Shown here one piece after another: positions 2,033-56,224 of a stretch of 64,000 nt of DNA. The stretch is from a virus. The notes under the pieces were generated by a model. The model saw only the letters and a program-made list of their open reading frames with translations. It ran no database searches and was not told the DNA's origin. Numbering within the stretch: the stretch's first letter is position 1; each line of letters opens with the position of its first letter. The position numbers and the translations under genes were made by a program. Location: IMG/VR virus record IMGVR_UViG_3300045522_000058; one strand, written 5' to 3'.

Positions 2033-2132
2033 TCAGCACATCTTCATAGAAGGCAGGAATACATCCTGGATATTGGTGGCAACTATCTTTGCATGCTCTG
2101 ACATCAGTATCGTGTTACGCCCGAAATCTCGA
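2033..2132 (-). pseudogene. C-terminal fragment of IS-interrupted kinase-like gene
   Basis: Minus strand reads (I)RDFGRNTILMSEHAKIVATNIQDVFLPSMKMC*, in frame with ORF 4699-4119 once 2140-4125 is removed; supplies the missing DFG motif. Confidence 0.8.
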
Positions 2133-2139
2133 ATAACAA

Positions 2140-4125
2140 GCGCTCTCCGACATCTGAGGTTGACGTTTCAATTAAATCTGATAAGAATTAATACCTAAGT
2201 TGGGCTTGTGGTTGATATTTGATCAGAACATTTGAAACACGTCTGGATTTAAGAGCGGATGATTTGCTTCCGCTCGTAGACGTGTTGGATCAATATAGTT
2301 CGGTTATGAACCATACCCAAAGAGTTATTCATGCCAAGCTGAAAGCGGGTCACGTCTGGACTGGTGATTTACATAAAAAGCTCTATCGTGATCTTGGAAT
2401 CGGCTCCGTTCATCTGAATATGGCATATCGCCAGTTAATGGCTAAACTTAGCTCCATCAAAGAACTGGCAAAATCTCGCGTGAATGACCTGAAGGACAAG
2501 ATCAAGTCTAAAGAAGGTGAAATTGGCAAGAAGAATAAGGCCGTTGCTAAAAACAAGCGCGACACGCAAAAACTGCAGGCTGAGATCGCGATCTGGAAAG
2601 AACGTGTTTTGCGTTTTAAAGCGGCAGTTAATGATGGGCATACAGATTCAGAAAAACATCTGAAACGTTCGATCAATGAATATTATGCTTATTTAGATCA
2701 GTTGCGTGAATTAAAGGTAATTCGCAAAAATCTTGAATTTGCCCTGCACCAGAATAAACGGCGTTTGGGTAATTTGCGCGATAAACTGAAAATAGCGGAA
2801 AAAGCAGTTTCCAATCCATCGATCTGCTTCGGAACAAAAAAGCTGTTCAAACAGCAGTTTTATCTCAAAGAAAATGATTTTAAAGATCATAAAGAATGGT
2901 CTGAGGCATGGAGAGCCGCGCGTAACAGCCAATTTAAATTTGAGGGAGACTCCTTACAAGCGGGAGGTAATTTATTTGCCAGATTATCTGTCAGAGACGA
3001 TGGCCTGTTTGACCTTGAACTGCGTTTACCGGAGAAGCTGAAACATCTGGCTCAAGAAACCATTCGTAATGGCCATGTCAATTTGGTGCGTTTTTATGGT
3101 CTGTCGTTTAATCACGGTTCGGATGTTGTTCGTGAAGCTCTGAGCAACAAACAGCCTGTGACTGTTTCATTCATCAAGGATGAAACATCATGGAAGGTAT
3201 CGGTCACCGTTGATCAGAAGCTCGAATGGATTGAGCCTGATTATAGCTGTGGTGCATTGGGCGTTGATTTTAATGCCAATCATGTCGCTGTTTCGCTCAT
3301 CGACCGTTTCGGAAACCCAGTTAAGTCATGGACATTGCCACTTAACACATATGGTTTGAGTGGTGACCAGGCTCAGGATTTAATCCGCAAATGCGCCAAG
3401 CAGATCATCGACATTGCGTTGGAATATGGCGTGCCAATCGTCAGCGAAAAGCTCGACTTTGCACGTAAGAAACGGGAATTAAAAGCTGAGGATGGGGCTA
3501 AATACGCCCGTATGTTGTCAGCCCTGACCTATAGCGGCTTTGACGCAGCATTGGCTTCAGCCTGTGCGCGTTTCCGCGTTGCACACAGGCGGGTTAATCC
3601 CGCCTATACCTCTTTGATCGGTCGTGTGAAGTTTGCTAGTAGTTATGGCTTGAGCGTCCACACAGCTGCCGCAGTTTCCATTGCTCGCAGGGCAATGGGA
3701 TTTTCCGAGGGATTACCTCGTCAGTTGAATGGAACAGTGATTGTTCCATTCAACAATTCCGAACATGTCACCTTTGCTCTACCTGCAAGGAAAGAAAAAG
3801 GCGCTGTGGCTAAGGCCAAGCCTGCAAAGCATGTGTGGTCGGAATGGAGAGAGTTGAACAAGGAAATGATAAAGGCTCATGCAGAGCAAAGGCTGTCTGG
3901 ACGAGTTAAACGTTCCAGACCCTTCACCCGTCGTCACTGGCGGGAGTGTGGTGGTGCATCTTATCTGCACCATGGTCTTTCTGGATTAATCGGCCGTGCC
4001 GTGACGATCCAGCTTAGTCGTAACGGCCAAGGGCTGGCCAAGCGCCAGGAAGCAATTCCTGAAATGAAAATCCAGCAAAGAGGTCAAAACACAGTTTCAA
4101 CCTCTTTGCTGGATAGCCATAACAA
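2140..4125 (+). mobile_element. TnpB-only IS200/IS605 (IS1341-like) element, ~1986 bp
   Basis: ATAACAA at both 2133-2139 and 4119-4125; perfect 15-bp subterminal hairpin at 4070-4084/4100-4114; encodes TnpB and no TnpA; removal restores the host ORF. Confidence 0.8.
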
Positions 4126-4156
4126 TCCTGTCGGCGTCGGTCCTTCCTATATTTGA
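2219..4156 (+). CDS. tnpB: IS200/IS605 accessory TnpB-like RuvC protein (645 aa) with long coiled-coil insert
   Basis: RuvC-I GALGVDFNANHVAV, RuvC-II IVSEKLDF, VNPAYTSLIG...SVHTAAAVSIARR; HVWSEW tail; no Zn finger. Confidence 0.85.
   Translation: MIRTFETRLDLRADDLLPLVDVLDQYSSVMNHTQRVIHAKLKAGHVWTGDLHKKLYRDLGIGSVHLNMAYRQLMAKLSSIKELAKSRVNDLKDKIKSKEGEIGKKNKAVAKNKRDTQKLQAEIAIWKERVLRFKAAVNDGHTDSEKHLKRSINEYYAYLDQLRELKVIRKNLEFALHQNKRRLGNLRDKLKIAEKAVSNPSICFGTKKLFKQQFYLKENDFKDHKEWSEAWRAARNSQFKFEGDSLQAGGNLFARLSVRDDGLFDLELRLPEKLKHLAQETIRNGHVNLVRFYGLSFNHGSDVVREALSNKQPVTVSFIKDETSWKVSVTVDQKLEWIEPDYSCGALGVDFNANHVAVSLIDRFGNPVKSWTLPLNTYGLSGDQAQDLIRKCAKQIIDIALEYGVPIVSEKLDFARKKRELKAEDGAKYARMLSALTYSGFDAALASACARFRVAHRRVNPAYTSLIGRVKFASSYGLSVHTAAAVSIARRAMGFSEGLPRQLNGTVIVPFNNSEHVTFALPARKEKGAVAKAKPAKHVWSEWRELNKEMIKAHAEQRLSGRVKRSRPFTRRHWRECGGASYLHHGLSGLIGRAVTIQLSRNGQGLAKRQEAIPEMKIQQRGQNTVSTSLLDSHNNPVGVGPSYI
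3920..4145 (+). ncRNA. Candidate omega (re)RNA overlapping the tnpB 3' end; guide ~4126-4145
   Basis: Nested stems (GGCCGT..ACGGCC, CAGGAA..TTCCTG, 15-bp hairpin) run up to the element end. TnpB guide RNAs are known to derive from the right end plus flank. Boundaries approximate. Confidence 0.5.
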
Positions 4157-4699
4157 GAAGACGAGGTCAGTGACAGTGATGCCTGTCTTTTGAGCATATT
4201 CGTTCAACGAGATATAGACGTCAGTCAGCTTTTGAATGTCTTCAGGATGCTTTTTGACAGCCAATTTAAAAACTGGATCCTCTACCAATTCATAGTTGCC
4301 ATTAAGGAATGGCCAAACGATACGGCAGATGCGCTGCTTATCGCCATTATCATCATTCATTTCATCAAAAACGTCACCGACTTCTTCTCGGATTATAGCG
4401 AAATATGGTCCGAATTCGTCCACCATTCGATGTACGCTATCAATTTTAGGAAAGAGAGCATTCGGATTATCGACGAGGTAAGAAGCTAACGCCGCCTCTT
4501 CTTCGCAATCAGTGATCTTGAAAACTTTTTGATCATTAAGAAGGAAGCATCGTCCTTGAATACCAGAGCCAATCTCCGCCAAAATTTCCAGAGATAGCGA
4601 GGCTTCAAGAATTCTAACCCGTTCTTCAGTATCAGGAAGTCTTATGGATTGAAGGTCAATTTTGCCATCCGAGGTCTGCGGAATATCAGAAATAATCAT
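4119..4699 (-). pseudogene. Kinase-like (APH/protein kinase fold) gene, N-terminal part, IS-interrupted
   Basis: EIGSGIQGRCF (Gly loop), VFKIT, DLVFSNIG catalytic-loop-like motif; truncated just before DFG. Confidence 0.75.
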
Positions 4700-7840: not shown

Positions 7841-7865
7841 AAACGCCGCTGTAGCAATTTAATTT

Positions 7866-8073
7866 AAAATAATCCGCCTGTGCGGCGGTTAACGAGAAGA
7901 AAAAATCGCTACGCATCGTTAGTATATTCAGAGCCGCCTGTGCGGCGGTTAGCCGTTCGTGGAGTTCTTCTGCGATGGGCACTGTATTCAGAGCCGCCTG
8001 TGCGGCGGTTAGCCACCGGATGGAGACGCCTGATCGATCAGGCAAATTCAGAGCCGCCTGTGCGGCGGTTAGC
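7866..8073 (-). CRISPR. Type I-F-like CRISPR mini-array: 4 repeats (28 bp), 3 spacers (32 bp)
   Basis: Repeat GCTAACCGCCGCACAGGCGGCTCTGAAT (minus strand) at 7926-7953, 7986-8013 and 8046-8073, with a degenerate copy at 7866-7893; exact 60-bp period; CCGCC/GGCGG stem in the same register as the Cas6f substrate. Confidence 0.9.
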
Positions 8074-8280
8074 TCTCCCGAAAAGAGGGATAATGTAGGC
8101 GCAGCAACAATTTCAAAGAACAATAGGGTCAGACCCCAATTTTTTGAAGGTACAATAAAACCCAGTAGATTCAAGGCTTATTTTTAATCGCAATAAAATC
8201 GGGGACTGACCCTATTGTTAGAAAAATATTGTTAGATATCCTTAAATAAACGCAACAATAAGCTTATTATTGTCACAGTA
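8074..8280 (-). promoter_or_regulatory. CRISPR leader with long inverted repeat
   Basis: AT-rich region on the non-degenerate side of the array; IR 8119-8143 / 8195-8219 (23/25 match). Confidence 0.6.
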
Positions 8281-13471: not shown

Positions 13472-15625
13472 ATGAAAAAGACCAATCAAGCCATCAAGAT
13501 GAGTGACGCAATCCTGCTTCTGCAGAATGGTTTCATCGACGTACCCGAAGGCGCTCCGCGCTCGGGCAATGAAATCGCAATTGGCACCATTGTCTCCAAT
13601 ATGGCTTATTTTGGTTTTGTTCCTTCTAAGGCAATCGTTGATGCAATGTCTGCTCTAACAGATGTTGATCTCGTTGAACTCTGGGCTAAGCTCAAGCCAG
13701 CTTTCAAATACGTCACCGCTGCCGACCGTAAGATGGGAAAGTTCGTCGTCTACAAGAATTTCCCCAAGGAAGTTCTTTCAATGAGCGAAGGCGAATATTG
13801 GCTAAAGCAGATTTTAATGTACTGGGGCTTGCCGAACGAACTCTTCACCGAAGAAAAAGAGCCTCGCGAGCCTATCTACGAAAAGATTTCACCAAAGGTC
13901 CTCGATCTGGCGGACGACGAGACACGCCTCAATATTTTCAACAAGCTCACCAAGCAGTCGTCTGACTGGACCGATTTCCAGAAGGAACAGGCAGGATTCT
14001 TGATGAAGTCCTATCCGTCAGCGATTATCGATCTTGATGCTTTCACGCAGAAGACGAATGGCATAAAACTGATTGCCTCGGCGTGGTCGGCCGTCCTGAA
14101 TGGCGAACGCTCGGTCAAGGTTTCGACCGCGACTGACGTCATGCGTCTTGCCGCAGCCCTGTCGGATATCGATGTGTCGCTGCGCACAGTCAGCAAGTTC
14201 CGCAAGTTCTCGCGTTCTGAACGCCGTCTTCTGGTCTCGCTTCTTGATGGGGCGTCCAACCTCGAAGGGGACTTCGCGCTACGCGCCGAACGTTGGAAGC
14301 GTCTGTTGTCGTTCATTCGTCCAGGTGAGTTCAAATTCGACAAGGTTAAGGCTGCTTATGATCGGCTCTACAAGGGTGAGCTTAAGACCGTGGCTACAGC
14401 CATCGAAGTTGGCTTGCTGAATAAGGATGTCGCTGTTCTTAAGGTTCTTAAGACGCGTCCTGGCGAGTTTATGCGCCGTCTGCACAAGACCTACGCTATC
14501 TTTGGTCGTGCGGCGCTGGAAATGTTTGTTTCGGTGATTGGTAATTTATCAGTTTCACAGCTTGTCAAACTAGACGGCTATCTGTCGTCAGTTAACTCCC
14601 GTAAGACGTACATCGTGACACCTTCTGGATCATGGGCGAAGGCTCAGGTCATCGACAATAAAAAGGCTCATGTCGCTCAGGAAGACTTATCGTTCATCCG
14701 TAGCGCTATCTCGGCCGAGATTGGTAGGCGTCTCAAGGGCCTCCATCCTGACGGTTTCGCAGTGGCCGCTGATACACTGAACGTGAAGCTGCAGGGGAAC
14801 GGTCAGGAGCTGGCTCCGTATGGTCGTGGCACGGTCTTCGACATTCCGCAGGGCGTTACCTTCATGCGTACGGCAAGCTATTGGCAAAACGACCGGAAGT
14901 ATGGTCACGTCTGGTTCGATAATGGCTTTAATTTCTTCGGCCATGACTGGTCACCGAAGGGATCGGTCTGCTGGAATTCTGTTAATCCTTTCGGTGATGG
15001 AAGGCATTGGGGAAGTAAAAATCCACAGAATCCAGGTTGTGTATTTTCTGGTGATCCGACAAACGCCAAGGAGCTGAAAGGTCGTGCTTGCCAGATGATA
15101 GACCTATACCCGCAGGAATTGATCGAAAAAGGCGTCCGATACGCAGTCTGGAACATTTTGGCTTACAGCAACATCATGTTCTCGGACGCAAAAGATGTCG
15201 TTGCCTCGCTGCAATGGGGGGAAGATGCCGAGACTGGCGCAATCTATGAGCCGTCGCGCGCTCAGATGGTGTTCCCAATCACAGGCAAGGCTCTGACCAA
15301 GTTCGTCGCCTATATCGATCTGATCGAGCGCAAACTGGTGTATCTTGACATCGGCTTGAGTGGTTCCGTTCAATCCGCTCGCGACAATGAGAAAAGATTG
15401 TCCAGGATGATGCCTTCCATCGTGGAGCATCTGGACACGCTGCCGTCGATTGCAGAACTCTTTGGCCATGCGGTCAACGACAAGGGAATTCCAGTTGTCT
15501 CAAATGACGAAGGTCTGGAGATCAATGGTCCGGCATACGTGTTCAAGCGGCTCAATGCTGACAACAATGTCGAGCAGATCGACATCGAGGAAATTCTGAA
15601 GGCAAAATCATCAACGACAGCATGA
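13472..15625 (+). CDS. TROVE-like repeat + TerD-domain protein (Prok-RING_4-type family, RING absent), 717 aa
   Basis: ATDVMRLAAALS, RWKRLL, RPGEFMRRL, PYGRGT, SGDPT..CQMIDL (TerD-like); clear paralogue of 34745-36925. Confidence 0.8.
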   Translation: MKKTNQAIKMSDAILLLQNGFIDVPEGAPRSGNEIAIGTIVSNMAYFGFVPSKAIVDAMSALTDVDLVELWAKLKPAFKYVTAADRKMGKFVVYKNFPKEVLSMSEGEYWLKQILMYWGLPNELFTEEKEPREPIYEKISPKVLDLADDETRLNIFNKLTKQSSDWTDFQKEQAGFLMKSYPSAIIDLDAFTQKTNGIKLIASAWSAVLNGERSVKVSTATDVMRLAAALSDIDVSLRTVSKFRKFSRSERRLLVSLLDGASNLEGDFALRAERWKRLLSFIRPGEFKFDKVKAAYDRLYKGELKTVATAIEVGLLNKDVAVLKVLKTRPGEFMRRLHKTYAIFGRAALEMFVSVIGNLSVSQLVKLDGYLSSVNSRKTYIVTPSGSWAKAQVIDNKKAHVAQEDLSFIRSAISAEIGRRLKGLHPDGFAVAADTLNVKLQGNGQELAPYGRGTVFDIPQGVTFMRTASYWQNDRKYGHVWFDNGFNFFGHDWSPKGSVCWNSVNPFGDGRHWGSKNPQNPGCVFSGDPTNAKELKGRACQMIDLYPQELIEKGVRYAVWNILAYSNIMFSDAKDVVASLQWGEDAETGAIYEPSRAQMVFPITGKALTKFVAYIDLIERKLVYLDIGLSGSVQSARDNEKRLSRMMPSIVEHLDTLPSIAELFGHAVNDKGIPVVSNDEGLEINGPAYVFKRLNADNNVEQIDIEEILKAKSSTTA

Positions 15626-19847: not shown

Positions 19848-20312
19848 ATGACCGCTCTTAAGACGAAGATTGTCGCCGAAAATCGCAAGGCTCGGCACAA
19901 CTATGAAATCATTGAAACTTTTGAAGCGGGAATTGTGCTGACTGGAACAGAAGTCAAATCCTTGCGGAATGGGTCTCCAAACATCGCCGAATCCTATGCA
20001 AGCCCTGAAGGTAACGAAATCTGGATCATTAATTCTTATGTTCCAGAATATACACAAGGCAATCGGTTTAATCACGATCCACGTCGCCATCGCAAAGTGC
20101 TGCTAAGCCGTCATGAAATTAACAAGATGCAGAATGCGGTTGCCCGTGAGGGCATGACCCTTGTTCCATTGAAGATCTATTTCAATGAAAAAGGTCGTGC
20201 AAAGGTGGAGCTTGCCATCGTAAAAGGGCGCAAGAACCACGACAAGCGCGAAGCGGATAAGAAACGTGATTGGCAACGCGAGAAGTCGCGTCTTCTCAAG
20301 GCTAATAGTTAA
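19848..20312 (+). CDS. smpB: SsrA-binding protein SmpB
   Basis: [52 protein letters not shown]. Confidence 0.97.
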
Positions 20313-27308: not shown

Positions 27309-28184
27309 TGTAGCTTCCCTTCATTCAAATATTAATAGAACGTTAATTCCGCGTTCTATGTATGAAAAATGGATACCTGTGTCAACTAATTACGTAGATA
27401 ATCATTATTTAATCGATAAAAATACCAATTAAATAAACCAATTAATGAGTAAAATTTTAATTATTTAAGGGAAATTCATTTAAATCAATCAGTTAATGGA
27501 TTTCCCATTAAATAATAGGTGCACCATAATAAAACACTTTATTTTGCAGGGTGTGGATAACTAAGCGGCAAAATACGCGCCCTCACTTATTTATTCTTTT
27601 GTCGGCAGGAGGTGTGAAAATTTGTCTACTGCATAATTAATAATTAAATTAATGCCGAAAGGATTGCCATAATGGAAAATATCACCGGAACAAGTGCCGT
27701 AAATTCACGAGGTGAAGTCGCTGTATTTTACGACGGTAAATTACGTCATTATGGAGCAAGTGCCACAAACTGAGAGAAACCAGTTGTGGCACGACAAATC
27801 GCCAATCTCCAGAAGGTTCGGATAAGCTTATGCGTTTGAATGGCTTGTATCGCGACGCTTCCAATGCATCGCGTAAAACAAACTGCCGATGGCCAATAGC
27901 TCCAGCACGAAGAATGCACCAGTCATTCTCGGGGCCACGCTGAACTGTATCATAGCCGACAGTACCACCACAGACAGCAACGCTGATGGCTCGATGAGCA
28001 GTCGGTTCCGTTTGAAGGCGAAATGACACTCTCTAACGAGTGAAGTCCGGTTTTGGCCAAAAGCTGCCTTTTCTTCGGGCCGCGATAAGACAACCTTGGG
28101 CCGGGAAAAATGTTGCTAAGCAATCTTTTATGTTGAATCGCCTGACACCGCATTGCAAATGAAATGTATTGCAGGAGATTTTGA

Positions 28185-28829
28185 TTGCTCGATCATTTGG
28201 GAACCACGGTTACAGTAGGAGGAGCGGACTACGACATCTCCCACCTCGCGCCTTTCATCTATACTCTGAAAGCGGCTGGTCCTAATGGCATGGACATCAG
28301 GGTGCGCGTCAGCTTCTCTTGTCATGTCTTCAGTGAAAAGGCCGCACACAATGCTGCCTTCGATTTTCGAGATCATAACGGAAGCCATCGAATCTTCTGC
28401 GCGAACCGCTACGCCAAATGCCTTACTCTTCAACAAGGCGTGCAAAACCTGTTCGATCAGAACGGCATTACTTGGGAGATGAAGGACCACAATCAGGTCG
28501 AAAACATGGCCGCATTGGCGCACAATCCGGCTGTGCGGATCGTCAGAGGCATACATGACGTGATCCTCTACTACTTCTATCCGAGTAACTCCGAACACTT
28601 CGAGATCGAGATGAACGTGCTGACCTGTCATGAGCGGGCGGTAAACACCACGGACAAGCACAAGTGGAATATGAAGCAAGCTGTGCGAGCCTGCTATTTT
28701 AGCAAGGAGCGAATGCCGATGACCGAGGATAAGCGCCGAGAGCTTGCCCAAATGAAGGCCGACGACGTGCGGGCTAAGCGGGCTGCCAAGCGCGATAAAC
28801 GGAAGGCATCGAAAGCGAAGAAGTCCTAA
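28185..28829 (+). CDS. Passenger hypothetical protein (214 aa, basic C-terminus)
   Basis: AGGAG SD; GC-richer than the flanks; followed by a strong hairpin at 28835-28860. Confidence 0.7.
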   Translation: MLDHLGTTVTVGGADYDISHLAPFIYTLKAAGPNGMDIRVRVSFSCHVFSEKAAHNAAFDFRDHNGSHRIFCANRYAKCLTLQQGVQNLFDQNGITWEMKDHNQVENMAALAHNPAVRIVRGIHDVILYYFYPSNSEHFEIEMNVLTCHERAVNTTDKHKWNMKQAVRACYFSKERMPMTEDKRRELAQMKADDVRAKRAAKRDKRKASKAKKS

Positions 28830-29294
28830 ATGACAAAAGGCTCCCAGACGGGAGCCTTTTGAGAATAACGAAGCGGGTGCGCCTTACCGTGGTTTACCGA
28901 ACCTCAAGAGAGGTGCGCAGCTACAGCATCAAGGCTATCACCAAGAAGTCCCGCCACCTGAAGCTACCTCATACATACAAAAAACAGGCAGGGTTAGCAA
29001 CAAAAAAGCGCATGAAAGTTTTCACAAACATGTGAGAACAGCTATGCGGAAGAGCCTGTTCGAAGTTAAGACGCTGAATCTACGTAGTTTCTTGCGACAT
29101 GACAAGAGGTGATGTCCTGCACAGTGTCATTTCGCCCTTAGCCGGAGCCGACCGCAACAGTTGACTCGACTCCACGCGACTCCCCTGATATGGGTCCTTT
29201 CATGTTCAGATCGATACGAATAGAGCGCTGACCTTTTTCTCCGCCCGAGTGACGGAGTGGCCGCCTATGTCCTGCGTATTGAACGGAACTAAAC

Positions 29295-53485: not shown

Positions 53486-53799
53486 CATTTTTCTCCCAAA
53501 GCAGTTTTTCAGTCCACAATGACAACGTGACACAGCCATCTGCGAACCACCAACGATTTCACTATCGTTTTTTAAAAATGGTTTCTCTTCTAATATTCTG
53601 CAGTCATTTAACGCTGCATTGTCCATCGAATAGGCGATACTAAAATTAATATCTGACGAAACTTTCAATAAAATATTGTTTATCGATGGTTTAAATGTGC
53701 ATAAATAATGCAGATACTCTCACATTTTTTCATGTACACGATTGACAAGAATTAAATAATTGACTATCTATTGAAATGTCGATTGAGAGATTCTCTTAA

Positions 53800-54210
53800 A
53801 CGAATATGGTGCTAAACCGAATGAGTAATAGGTTTTCTGGACGCGGCTGCGACGCCGCCACCTCCACCATAAGCACTGCGACTTAACTCCCAAGAGTAGA
53901 ATTGGGTTGAGGGGAATTAAGTCTTAGCGGATAAAACCTATGTTGTGACGCCACCCAGGCGGACATGGCAGTGATGGTGAAACGCAGTGTTTATGATGGG
54001 GGTGATTTAGGTTCGACAGGAGCTGAAAGTCATCTCGTTGTACTCGGCATGATACCACCGCATCGGGTCAAAAATGTAGTTGCAAACGACAACTTCGCTC
54101 AGGGTCGTGCTCTCGCTGCCTAACCGCAGTGCGGGAGATCCGCTTTAAGTCCTTAGGGTTAGCACCTTAAGGCGGGGTTTGGTGGCACCTGGCAACAGAA
54201 CGCCACCATT
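53800..54210 (+). ncRNA. ssrA: Circularly permuted two-piece tmRNA (alphaproteobacterial type)
   Basis: 3' piece ends CCTCCACCA at 53869; intervening segment 53870-53997; 5' piece starts GGGGGTGATTTAGGTTCGAC at 53998; tag ANDNFAQGRALAA* at 54082-54123; terminator hairpin GGTGGC..GCCACC+T. The start coordinate is approximate. Confidence 0.92.
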
Positions 54211-54463
54211 TTTTCTTTAAAACCTCCCCCTCCTCAATGTCATGCGAGTAGTACACCCGTTTTACGATACGGTTAAATCCGTACTGCTAATATTGACGTT
54301 CGTAATGTGTGACTTCTGTGCTTATTAAACGATGCCTTATGGCTTTATCATATGAAGACCACCGAGATATTAATAAGCGATCATAAACCTTATTAAATAA
54401 TGTTGACGACAGTGGTAATATGGGAGACCATTTTATTACAAATCAATATTAAAAAGGATTTTC

Positions 54464-54829
54464 ATGCGTATTTTTATTATGGCATTAATTTTACTGCTTC
54501 CTACGCAAGCATTCGCCGCTTATGGCGGCTGGGCCTTCTCTCCGCCGAAGCGTTTTGAAGGCAAACCTCCTATGCCATATACGATTATAGCGCTTCCTGT
54601 GACGAAAATAGCAAAATATTGCTCTGCATATAAACGTTTCTATAATATCATCTATGGCTGCGCGACCATTCGCGATAAGCCAAAAAAGCATTGCGTGGTC
54701 TTTATTCCAGATAAATCGCTGCCAAATCTAGCGTGGCCAATAGGTGGAGTGCTGATAATTAAGCCGGAAATGATATTCAAACATGAGTTAGCACACTGTA
54801 ATGGTTGGCCAAAGGACCACCCTCGTTAA
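54464..54829 (+). CDS. Secreted hypothetical protein with HELAH zincin-like motif
   Basis: Signal peptide ending AFA; FKHELAHCNGW (HExxH). Confidence 0.65.
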   Translation: MRIFIMALILLLPTQAFAAYGGWAFSPPKRFEGKPPMPYTIIALPVTKIAKYCSAYKRFYNIIYGCATIRDKPKKHCVVFIPDKSLPNLAWPIGGVLIIKPEMIFKHELAHCNGWPKDHPR

Positions 54830-54926
54830 TTAGGGTGCTTTAATTAATTATGCAAAAAGATGCGATTTAATGAAATTAGTGCTTGATATTCGAAATTCAG
54901 GTCTATAATAAAGAGACATCAACAGC

Positions 54927-55011
54927 GCGGACTTGGCGAAATTGGTAGACGCAGCAGACTTAAAATTTGCCGATTTTAATCGTGGGGGTTCGATTCCCCC
55001 AGTCCGCACCA
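54927..55011 (+). tRNA. trnL: tRNA-Leu (anticodon TAA)
   Basis: GCGGACT/AGTCCGC acceptor stem, GCAGA-CTTAAAA-TTTGC anticodon arm, variable arm, GGTTCGATTCC, encoded CCA. Confidence 0.95.
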
Positions 55012-55087
55012 GGCCCCTTAGCTCAGTGGATAGAGCACCGGCCTTCTAAGCCGGGTGTCGGAGGTTCGAGTCCTCCAGGGGTCGCCA
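55012..55087 (+). tRNA. trnR: tRNA-Arg (anticodon TCT)
   Basis: GGCCCCT/AGGGGTC acceptor stem, CCGGC-CTTCTAA-GCCGG, GGTTCGAGTCC, encoded CCA. Confidence 0.95.
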
Positions 55088-56048: not shown

Positions 56049-56224
56049 TAAGAAGTCGATAATTGGCATTTTGGCTATCCAGAATTTGAGGTTGAACTAA
56101 GTTTTTCCTTAATGTCGGATAGCCATTTTTTTTGAACTCTAGCCAAATCTATTATCCCAGTTAGTACTGGTGCTTTGCGAGCACTTTTAAGAAATTTGGT
56201 TTATCATTTTTTCTCGGAGACATT

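Follow-up and report, generated by a model that had tools for sequence, protein, structure and literature searches.

A TnpB-only element with ISL3-like terminal repeats in a kinase-fold gene of a putative Rhizobiales megaplasmid family

The locus described here consists of two pieces of a kinase-fold gene separated by an element of 1,978 bp (2141-4118), which carries only tnpB and a structured 3' RNA and holds no transposase gene (Table 1). It lies within the window, by which we mean the whole 64,000-nucleotide stretch of DNA that was analysed (IMG/VR record IMGVR_UViG_3300045522_000058). About 130 metagenome records contain proteins of the window, on contigs as long as 1,002,252 bp. Over its whole length the window is collinear with positions 242-312 kb of contig 2 (1.19 Mb) of Mesorhizobium sp. 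SP-1A. From these data we infer that it is part of a family of megaplasmid-like replicons of about 1 Mb in the Rhizobiales (Alphaproteobacteria). No close relatives of the TnpB were found in phages or viral contigs.

Table 1. Features of the interrupted locus, in window coordinates
Feature	Position	Strand	Basis or remark
3' part of kinase-fold gene (IRDFGRN... to stop)	2033..2132	-	alignment to six intact homologue C-termini
Left flank TCTCGA; last two bases (GA, 2131-2132; RA) are the candidate TAM	2127..2132	+	flank bias
Left copy of target-site duplication (ATAACAAG)	2133..2140	.	7/8 to right copy
Left terminal inverted repeat, ISL3-like	2141..2164	+	22/24 to family consensus, first base changed
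Possible tnpB promoter	2160..2188	+	-35 box TTGACG lies in inverted repeat; 9/12 consensus match
Long TnpB, 645 aa; coiled-coil insertion at about residues 63-198 (~135 residues)	2219..4156	+	profiles, fold matches
Predicted omega-RNA scaffold	3905..4118	+	folding and consensus structure; 5' boundary approximate
Last three stem-loops of omega-RNA	4025-4039, 4046-4061, 4070-4114	+	predicted fold
Right terminal inverted repeat, degenerate in window copy	4095..4118	-	alignment of relatives' ends
Right copy of target-site duplication (ATAACAAT)	4119..4126	.	comparison with relatives
Predicted guide segment	4119..4138	+	scaffold end; start uncertain by about 1 nt
5' part of kinase-fold gene (GxGxxG, Lys61, Glu68, catalytic Asp178)	4127..4699	-	homologue alignment

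Deletion of positions 2140-4125 creates an open minus-strand frame of 226 aa (4699 to 2033) reading ...DRIV-IRDFGRN..., in agreement with the original reading, in which a TnpB element had entered a kinase gene two codons before its DFG motif. The uninterrupted alleles that it anticipated in relatives exist: a search with the 5' part of the gene returned six intact proteins, 226-228 aa long and 59-76% identical, which read RFVIRDFGRN across the junction and whose C-termini align with the orphan 3' piece of the window, and a syntenic empty site is present in sister replicons. Three intact loci match the rejoined junction at 63-66 of 80 nt in a gap-free alignment, and the neighbouring genes at the intact loci are the same as at the window's kinase. 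The insertion in the kinase gene is real, the match to the homologues being far above chance. The 5' part now continues into the element as far as a stop at 4097 and lacks DFG; the gene is therefore presumably inactivated. An intron-like (IStron) rescue of the kinase can be set aside, as tnpB runs antisense to the kinase gene and a search for an intron found none.

By its motifs and predicted structure, the product of the interrupted gene belongs to the protein-kinase-like superfamily. It has a Gly-rich loop, the beta3 Lys, the helix C Glu, the catalytic Asp, DFG and a two-lobed fold, with G46, K61, D178 and D196 invariant over 32 alignment rows. Profile matches to kinases are weak (E 8e-4) and a Pfam search gave no match, while the model (pLDDT 89) matches both APH(2'') aminoglycoside phosphotransferases and protein kinases at a TM-score of about 0.4. 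Ranked by language-model features, the relatives of this protein are mostly phage proteins.

The ATAACAA copies noted earlier as a 7-nt repeat are present at 2133-2139 and 4119-4125, but they are the matching part of an 8-bp target-site duplication with one mismatch (7/8; ATAACAAG at 2133-2140 and ATAACAAT at 4119-4126). When the ends of relatives with 70-81% TnpB identity are aligned, conservation drops abruptly at inverted repeats on both sides. A blind scan of relatives for an inverted repeat plus a duplication recovered inverted repeats of 19-23/24 with perfect 8-bp duplications in four of them (L007, L009, L010 and L012) and in the 43% identical copies on the Rhizobium plasmid pRlX5. The duplication is 8/8 in 10-11 other elements, among them these four and L075, L076, L033 and L036, and the 8-mer is different at every site; L060 has 7/8, and L030, L137 and L061 were left out of the 8/8 count since they have no clean 8-bp duplication (L061 fits 7 bp). 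The sites of L009 and L076 occur empty in the SP-1A replicon, with a single copy of the 8-mer and identical junction sequence. As the duplications differ from site to site and the empty alleles hold one copy, ATAACAA is a target duplication. The assignment to IS200/IS605, elements that make no duplication, is thereby refuted: other copies, which on that assignment should have the same ends, carry inverted repeats and other 8-mers. That a TnpB-only unit with inverted repeats of about 24 bp and an 8-bp duplication sits in a conserved kinase-fold gene is practically certain.

Both ends of the window copy itself are damaged, and it has probably lost the ability to transpose. The middle of its right repeat has been replaced and now forms a near-perfect 21-bp hairpin with 4070-4090; the same change moves the stop codon, which lies inside the repeat in several relatives, so that tnpB reads to 4156. 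For the possible promoter at the left end, counts of promoter matches are at chance level, and both boxes are largely kept in relatives.

The identity of the ends bears on which enzyme moves the element. Two elements with an ISL3 transposase (PF01610) from Rhizobiaceae genomes, L071 and L068, have 8/8 duplications; the ends of L071 match those of the TnpB elements of pRlX5 and MHM7A at 20-22 of 24 positions, the ends of L033/L060 are matched at 21-22 of 24, and an end of L068 matches the left end of a Methylobacterium TnpB element (L061) at 24 of 24. The ends of the window subgroup reach at best 13-15/24 against the few ISL3 ends sampled, and the frame GG.TAT.CG...GGTTGA is common to ISL3 ends, relatives' ends and the window subgroup. 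Because the relatives' ends match those of ISL3 transposase elements, the element is most likely non-autonomous and mobilised by a borrowed ISL3 enzyme. No ISL3 transposase was found in the SP-1A genome or on three other host plasmids, so the enzyme would come from the host or a visiting element. An autonomous element with the exact ends of the window subgroup was not found in 301 genomes of the family and 401 of the order; a plasmid search for these ends returned one match (H35) with no transposase annotated there, and a search of viral contigs only a chance match inside an ORF. Two of the sampled ISL3 elements sit in prophage-like DNA. MITEs with such ends also occur, of 221-230 bp on rhizobial plasmids and of 52 bp at 56073-56124 of the window.

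The tnpB product matches TIGR01766 (E=4e-9) and, below the cut-off, NF040570, and its model retrieves Cas12k and Cas12f in Foldseek (E about 1e-8, with low TM-scores); a Pfam search gave no match, and no solved structure matched the TnpB alignment by sequence. The profiles and the model together indicate a TnpB/Cas12 fold with RuvC-I, II and III. The RuvC residues D350, E410 and H481 do not vary among 32 proteins spanning 40-100% identity; His481 stands in place of the RuvC-III Asp, and the zinc finger is absent. We found no activity assay of an Asp-to-His RuvC-III variant in the literature, where such variants form branch RIIIr-4 and are presumed active (PMC10691335). Relatives in Pseudomonas lie behind an IS607 serine recombinase (the transposase) and have no inverted repeats, whereas this TnpA is absent from the window element and from all copies with inverted repeats, a distribution that points to an IS607 ancestry of tnpB as the presumed direction of change. 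A second, unrelated TnpB of about 420 aa, which has a zinc finger, occurs in three copies on the SP-1A replicon with the same inverted repeats and 8-bp duplications, and its best plasmid matches are also IS607 TnpBs. With two unrelated TnpBs inside the same ends, the ends have been colonised at least twice.

The 3' end of the element is predicted to specify an omega-RNA. The segment 3920-4138 folds much better than shuffled sequences (z=-5.0), in part through the enlarged hairpin, and relatives have a conserved consensus structure over the last ~220 nt; an Rfam search with this RNA gave no match. In known omega-RNAs, three stem-loops precede the guide, and the one farthest from it pairs with the 3' end of the scaffold (PMC10690162, PMC10097598), the pairing covering positions -6 to -2 in ISDra2. 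Here, the loop 4029-4035 contains GGCT (4032-4035), complementary to the terminal AGCC (4115-4118). This 4-bp match recurs in nine of ten close relatives, the exception (L010) being below the hairpin filter, and in Methylobacterium L061. In L036, and by eye in L060, GGGT stands against a terminal ACCC, so that the loop co-varies with the end; in L030 and L033 the match is only 3 bp, groups differ in register by 1 nt, and the zinc-finger type has a loop-to-end match of 6 bp. Swapping the ends lowers the loop match in all but L010. As the loop is complementary to the terminal bases of the repeat, the repeat tip is most probably where the scaffold stops, and the guide would open with the duplication, at 4119, 7 nt earlier than the start at 4126 originally proposed. 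The predicted guide matches the intact kinase alleles at 17 of 20 positions, with TCGA directly before each and two of the three mismatches in its first 8 nt; neither the window nor the SP-1A replicon yielded another target within four mismatches. The empty sites of L009 and L076 in SP-1A are perfect targets of the predicted guides.

The TAM had been expected within ATAACAA, which is target duplication; the candidate is instead the GA at 2131-2132, outside the repeat. Directly 5' of the left duplication, RA is present at eight of eight sites of close relatives, against one of eight on the other side and a background of about 0.16. The motif was picked post hoc on six sites, L075 and L076 being fetched later (8-9 sites in all), so the raw chance of 8/8, about 4e-7, is to be read beside that of the two later sites alone, 0.025. 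L137 likewise has GA at its left flank, though its flanks show no duplication. The zinc-finger copies, with identical ends, have TA at the same position (3/3), the group of 43% identity has other bases there, and the flanks of autonomous ISL3 elements show no such bias. Position -2 thus differs by TnpB type and position -1 is A for both. That the motif follows the nuclease and not the ends suggests selection for insertions beside a usable TAM, while the A at -1 in both types means that a one-sided preference of the transposase could contribute. Both the omega-RNA and the landing sites appear adapted to the borrowed ISL3-type ends.

Taken jointly, these observations are on the whole best read as a borrowed ISL3 transposase, a flank-derived guide, a TAM of sequence RA lying beyond the duplication, and either homing into empty alleles of sister replicons or their elimination, a combination that we consider fairly probable. 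An IS607-type tnpB/omega-RNA module would have lost its serine recombinase and become packaged between ISL3 ends, and an ISL3 DDE transposase acting in trans would insert the element, duplicating 8 bp; these steps are very likely. Transcription of the omega-RNA would then pass through the right repeat, the first stem-loop pairing with the repeat's last bases, and the guide would be the right flank, opening with the duplication, which we hold to be likely. TnpB would require RA immediately 5' of its target. An empty allele would offer RA followed by the whole guide match. In a filled allele, the left junction would keep RA with no more than about 8 matching bases, and the guide match at the right junction would have no RA before it; as neither filled junction has both RA and the full match, the element would spare itself. 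If a sister replicon, incoming or co-resident, carried an empty allele, this would be cut, and either the filled allele would serve as repair template (homing) or the rival would be lost; insertions beside RA would persist for this reason. For this last part we lean only slightly towards acceptance. Homing into empty alleles of sister replicons, which includes the cutting of sibling alleles proposed originally, is a plausible best guess at function from sequence comparison. A wider version, in which ISL3 ends on giant Rhizobiales replicons were colonised at least twice, each TnpB rewiring the pseudoknot and using its own TAM as a homing drive, with the His-type nuclease active and needing only RA, is possible but somewhat doubtful.

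The most serious alternative keeps this architecture but has a TnpB that does not cut, being a passenger or an RNA-guided binder or roadblock, with the RA bias due to the transposase or to chance. The His in place of the RuvC-III Asp, the lost zinc finger, the nuclease-dead Cas12k among the best fold matches and the A at -1 in both TnpB types would fit such a protein, and ISL3 elements, which form circles, presumably transpose by copying out, so that rescue of the donor site is not obviously needed (10.1101/2023.06.07.543989). Against this, Altae-Tran et al. argue that conserved rearrangements of this kind stay active (PMC10691335). Moreover, D, E and H are invariant over the whole range of identity, position -2 changes with TnpB type under identical ends, and the co-variation of the pseudoknot implies selection on a flank-derived guide; we therefore consider a non-cutting TnpB unlikely.

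The remaining alternatives concern the ends. Duplications of 8 bp and G-G ends also occur in the IS6 and IS1595 families, and an origin of the ends in one of them and not in ISL3 would accommodate the modest match of the window subgroup to the sampled ISL3 ends. The 21-24/24 matches of relatives to ISL3 and the frame common to the window subgroup speak against it, IS6 (PF13610) is absent from SP-1A and pRlX5, and the IS1595-like element in the window has ends unrelated to those of the TnpB element, which leaves this origin very unlikely. Weak PF13610 matches in a Pseudomonas plasmid proved to be IS3, not IS6. Still less probable is an IS605-like unit that had inserted into a palindrome and is bounded by TTGAC and TTCAA, which mark the inner edge of each repeat, with the outer part of the inverted repeat as guide: GGTTGA is native to autonomous ISL3 ends, the palindrome is wholly missing from empty sites and it is the outer end of the repeat that takes part in the pseudoknot. 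A duplication-free IS200/IS605 element, its TAM inside ATAACAA and its guide from 4126, would explain the TnpB-only content and the strong hairpin near the right end, but retains next to no probability beside inverted-repeat ends, one-copy empty sites and a repeat that is always 8 bp and differs at every site.

Why TnpB rides on DDE transposons, with neither scarless excision nor a shared target motif, is an open question (PMC13565253), and the family presented here amounts to a natural controlled experiment in which two unrelated TnpBs have identical ends and their own flank motifs. It also pairs filled with empty alleles across sister replicons, and a TAM outside the duplication, cutting by His-type RuvC-III TnpBs and homing as a means of maintenance on megaplasmids all become testable; a TnpB with a two-base TAM would, if true, be of interest as a tool.

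The element shares with the IS200/IS605 and IS1341 groups (ISDra2, IS608) a TnpB, an omega-RNA at the right end and a guide derived from the flank. Unlike it, these have hairpin ends, no inverted repeats or duplication and a Y1 transposase, and their fixed 4-5-nt left-flank motif repeated at the right end is not found here. Inverted repeats and target duplications are both absent from IS200/IS605 and from IS607 (PMC13565253). The closest autonomous relatives (37-41% identity) carry the serine recombinase TnpA of IS607, and CboIStron (PMC10690162) resembles the window element in that three stem-loops, with a nexus pseudoknot, precede the guide; in place of the GG core of IS607 and its lack of inverted repeats and duplication, however, the window element has both of the latter, no TnpA, and RA rather than TGGG in the flank. 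With the RIIIr-4 branch (PMC10691335) it shares the His at RuvC-III, and it differs in its coiled-coil insertion of ~135 residues and the lack of an RHH partner. The ISL3 family (ISPpu12/ISPst-like elements, with passenger-carrying and MITE derivatives) has the same 24-bp repeat pattern and 8-bp duplication; inverted repeats of ~24 bp starting GG and the 8-bp duplication are found here too, the window copy's ends being damaged, whereas the transposase gene is missing and the cargo is an RNA-guided module. TnpBs between DDE-type ends have been known since 2023, as branches DDE-1 to DDE-6 and solo TnpBs with matching ends (PMC10691335), and their transposon partners are ISL2, IS630 and IS1031 (PMC13565253); a TnpB with an ISL3 partner was not found in the texts searched. 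Like the window element, DDE-associated TnpBs have inverted repeats and a 3' end near the element end, and they are mobilised in trans, as the window element probably is. What sets the window element apart from DDE-1 to DDE-6 is its probable ISL3-like partner and the sharing of ends by two unrelated TnpBs, together with the TAM-like motif outside the duplication and the co-variation of the pseudoknot described here for its family.

The ISL3-like inverted repeats that bound the main, long-TnpB element of the window are also carried by several other elements. On contig 2 of Mesorhizobium sp. SP-1A, part of which is collinear with the window, three elements of 1,355-1,360 bp (L016, L017 and L020) have the same ends and encode a zinc-finger type of TnpB that is unrelated to the long TnpB of the window, the L017 element containing a frameshift. 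As the MITEs and the tnpB remnant with these ends sit on rhizobial symbiosis plasmids, the ends have spread outside the megaplasmid family. The long TnpB itself is present in a second copy, adjoining recA on a replicon of the same ~1-Mb kind; its ends are older and diverged, and its duplication is 5/8. Within the window, a mini-element is built from two copies of the main element's inverted repeats, its flanks sharing ATTTT alone, without a clean 8-bp duplication.

Locations of elements and genes in the window and compared loci
Feature	Location	Description
MITE, ISL3-like ends	L062:2501-2721	rhizobial symbiosis plasmid
MITE, ISL3-like ends	L064:2501-2730	rhizobial symbiosis plasmid
Decayed tnpB remnant, ISL3-like ends	L063:2501-3279	rhizobial symbiosis plasmid
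Second long-TnpB copy	L011:3932-5901	
Mini-element	window 56073-56124	52 bp
ISXO2/IS1595-like element	window 27744-30455	25-bp inverted repeats
Inner inverted pair of that element	window 27998-29155	
Kinase paralogues	SP-1A contig 2, 622.3-623.4 kb	29-36% identity
Gene downstream of kinase	L002:6696-7778	360 aa
SmpB-like gene, tmRNA, tRNAs	window 19848-20312, 53738-55084	
Two genes with similar starts	window 13472-15625, 34745-36925	~720 aa each
CRISPR-like array	window 7865-8074	four ~30-nt repeats, 60-nt spacing
Inverted repeat pair	window 8119-8219	25 bp, 51 nt between

A separate element of the window contains an ISXO2/IS1595-like ORF and an inner inverted pair. The small kinase has two distant paralogues in tandem in SP-1A, and in one sister replicon the intact kinase is immediately followed by an additional gene.

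The replicon is megaplasmid-like, with an SmpB-like gene, a permuted alphaproteobacterial tmRNA and two tRNAs. Two further genes have starts that look alike, the first being the most conserved long stretch relative to SP-1A (85% nt).

A mini CRISPR-like array lies between a cytosine methylase and recQ, an inverted repeat pair following immediately. No cas gene was seen near the array and no convincing spacer target was found among the compared loci; its repeats resemble those of type I-F.
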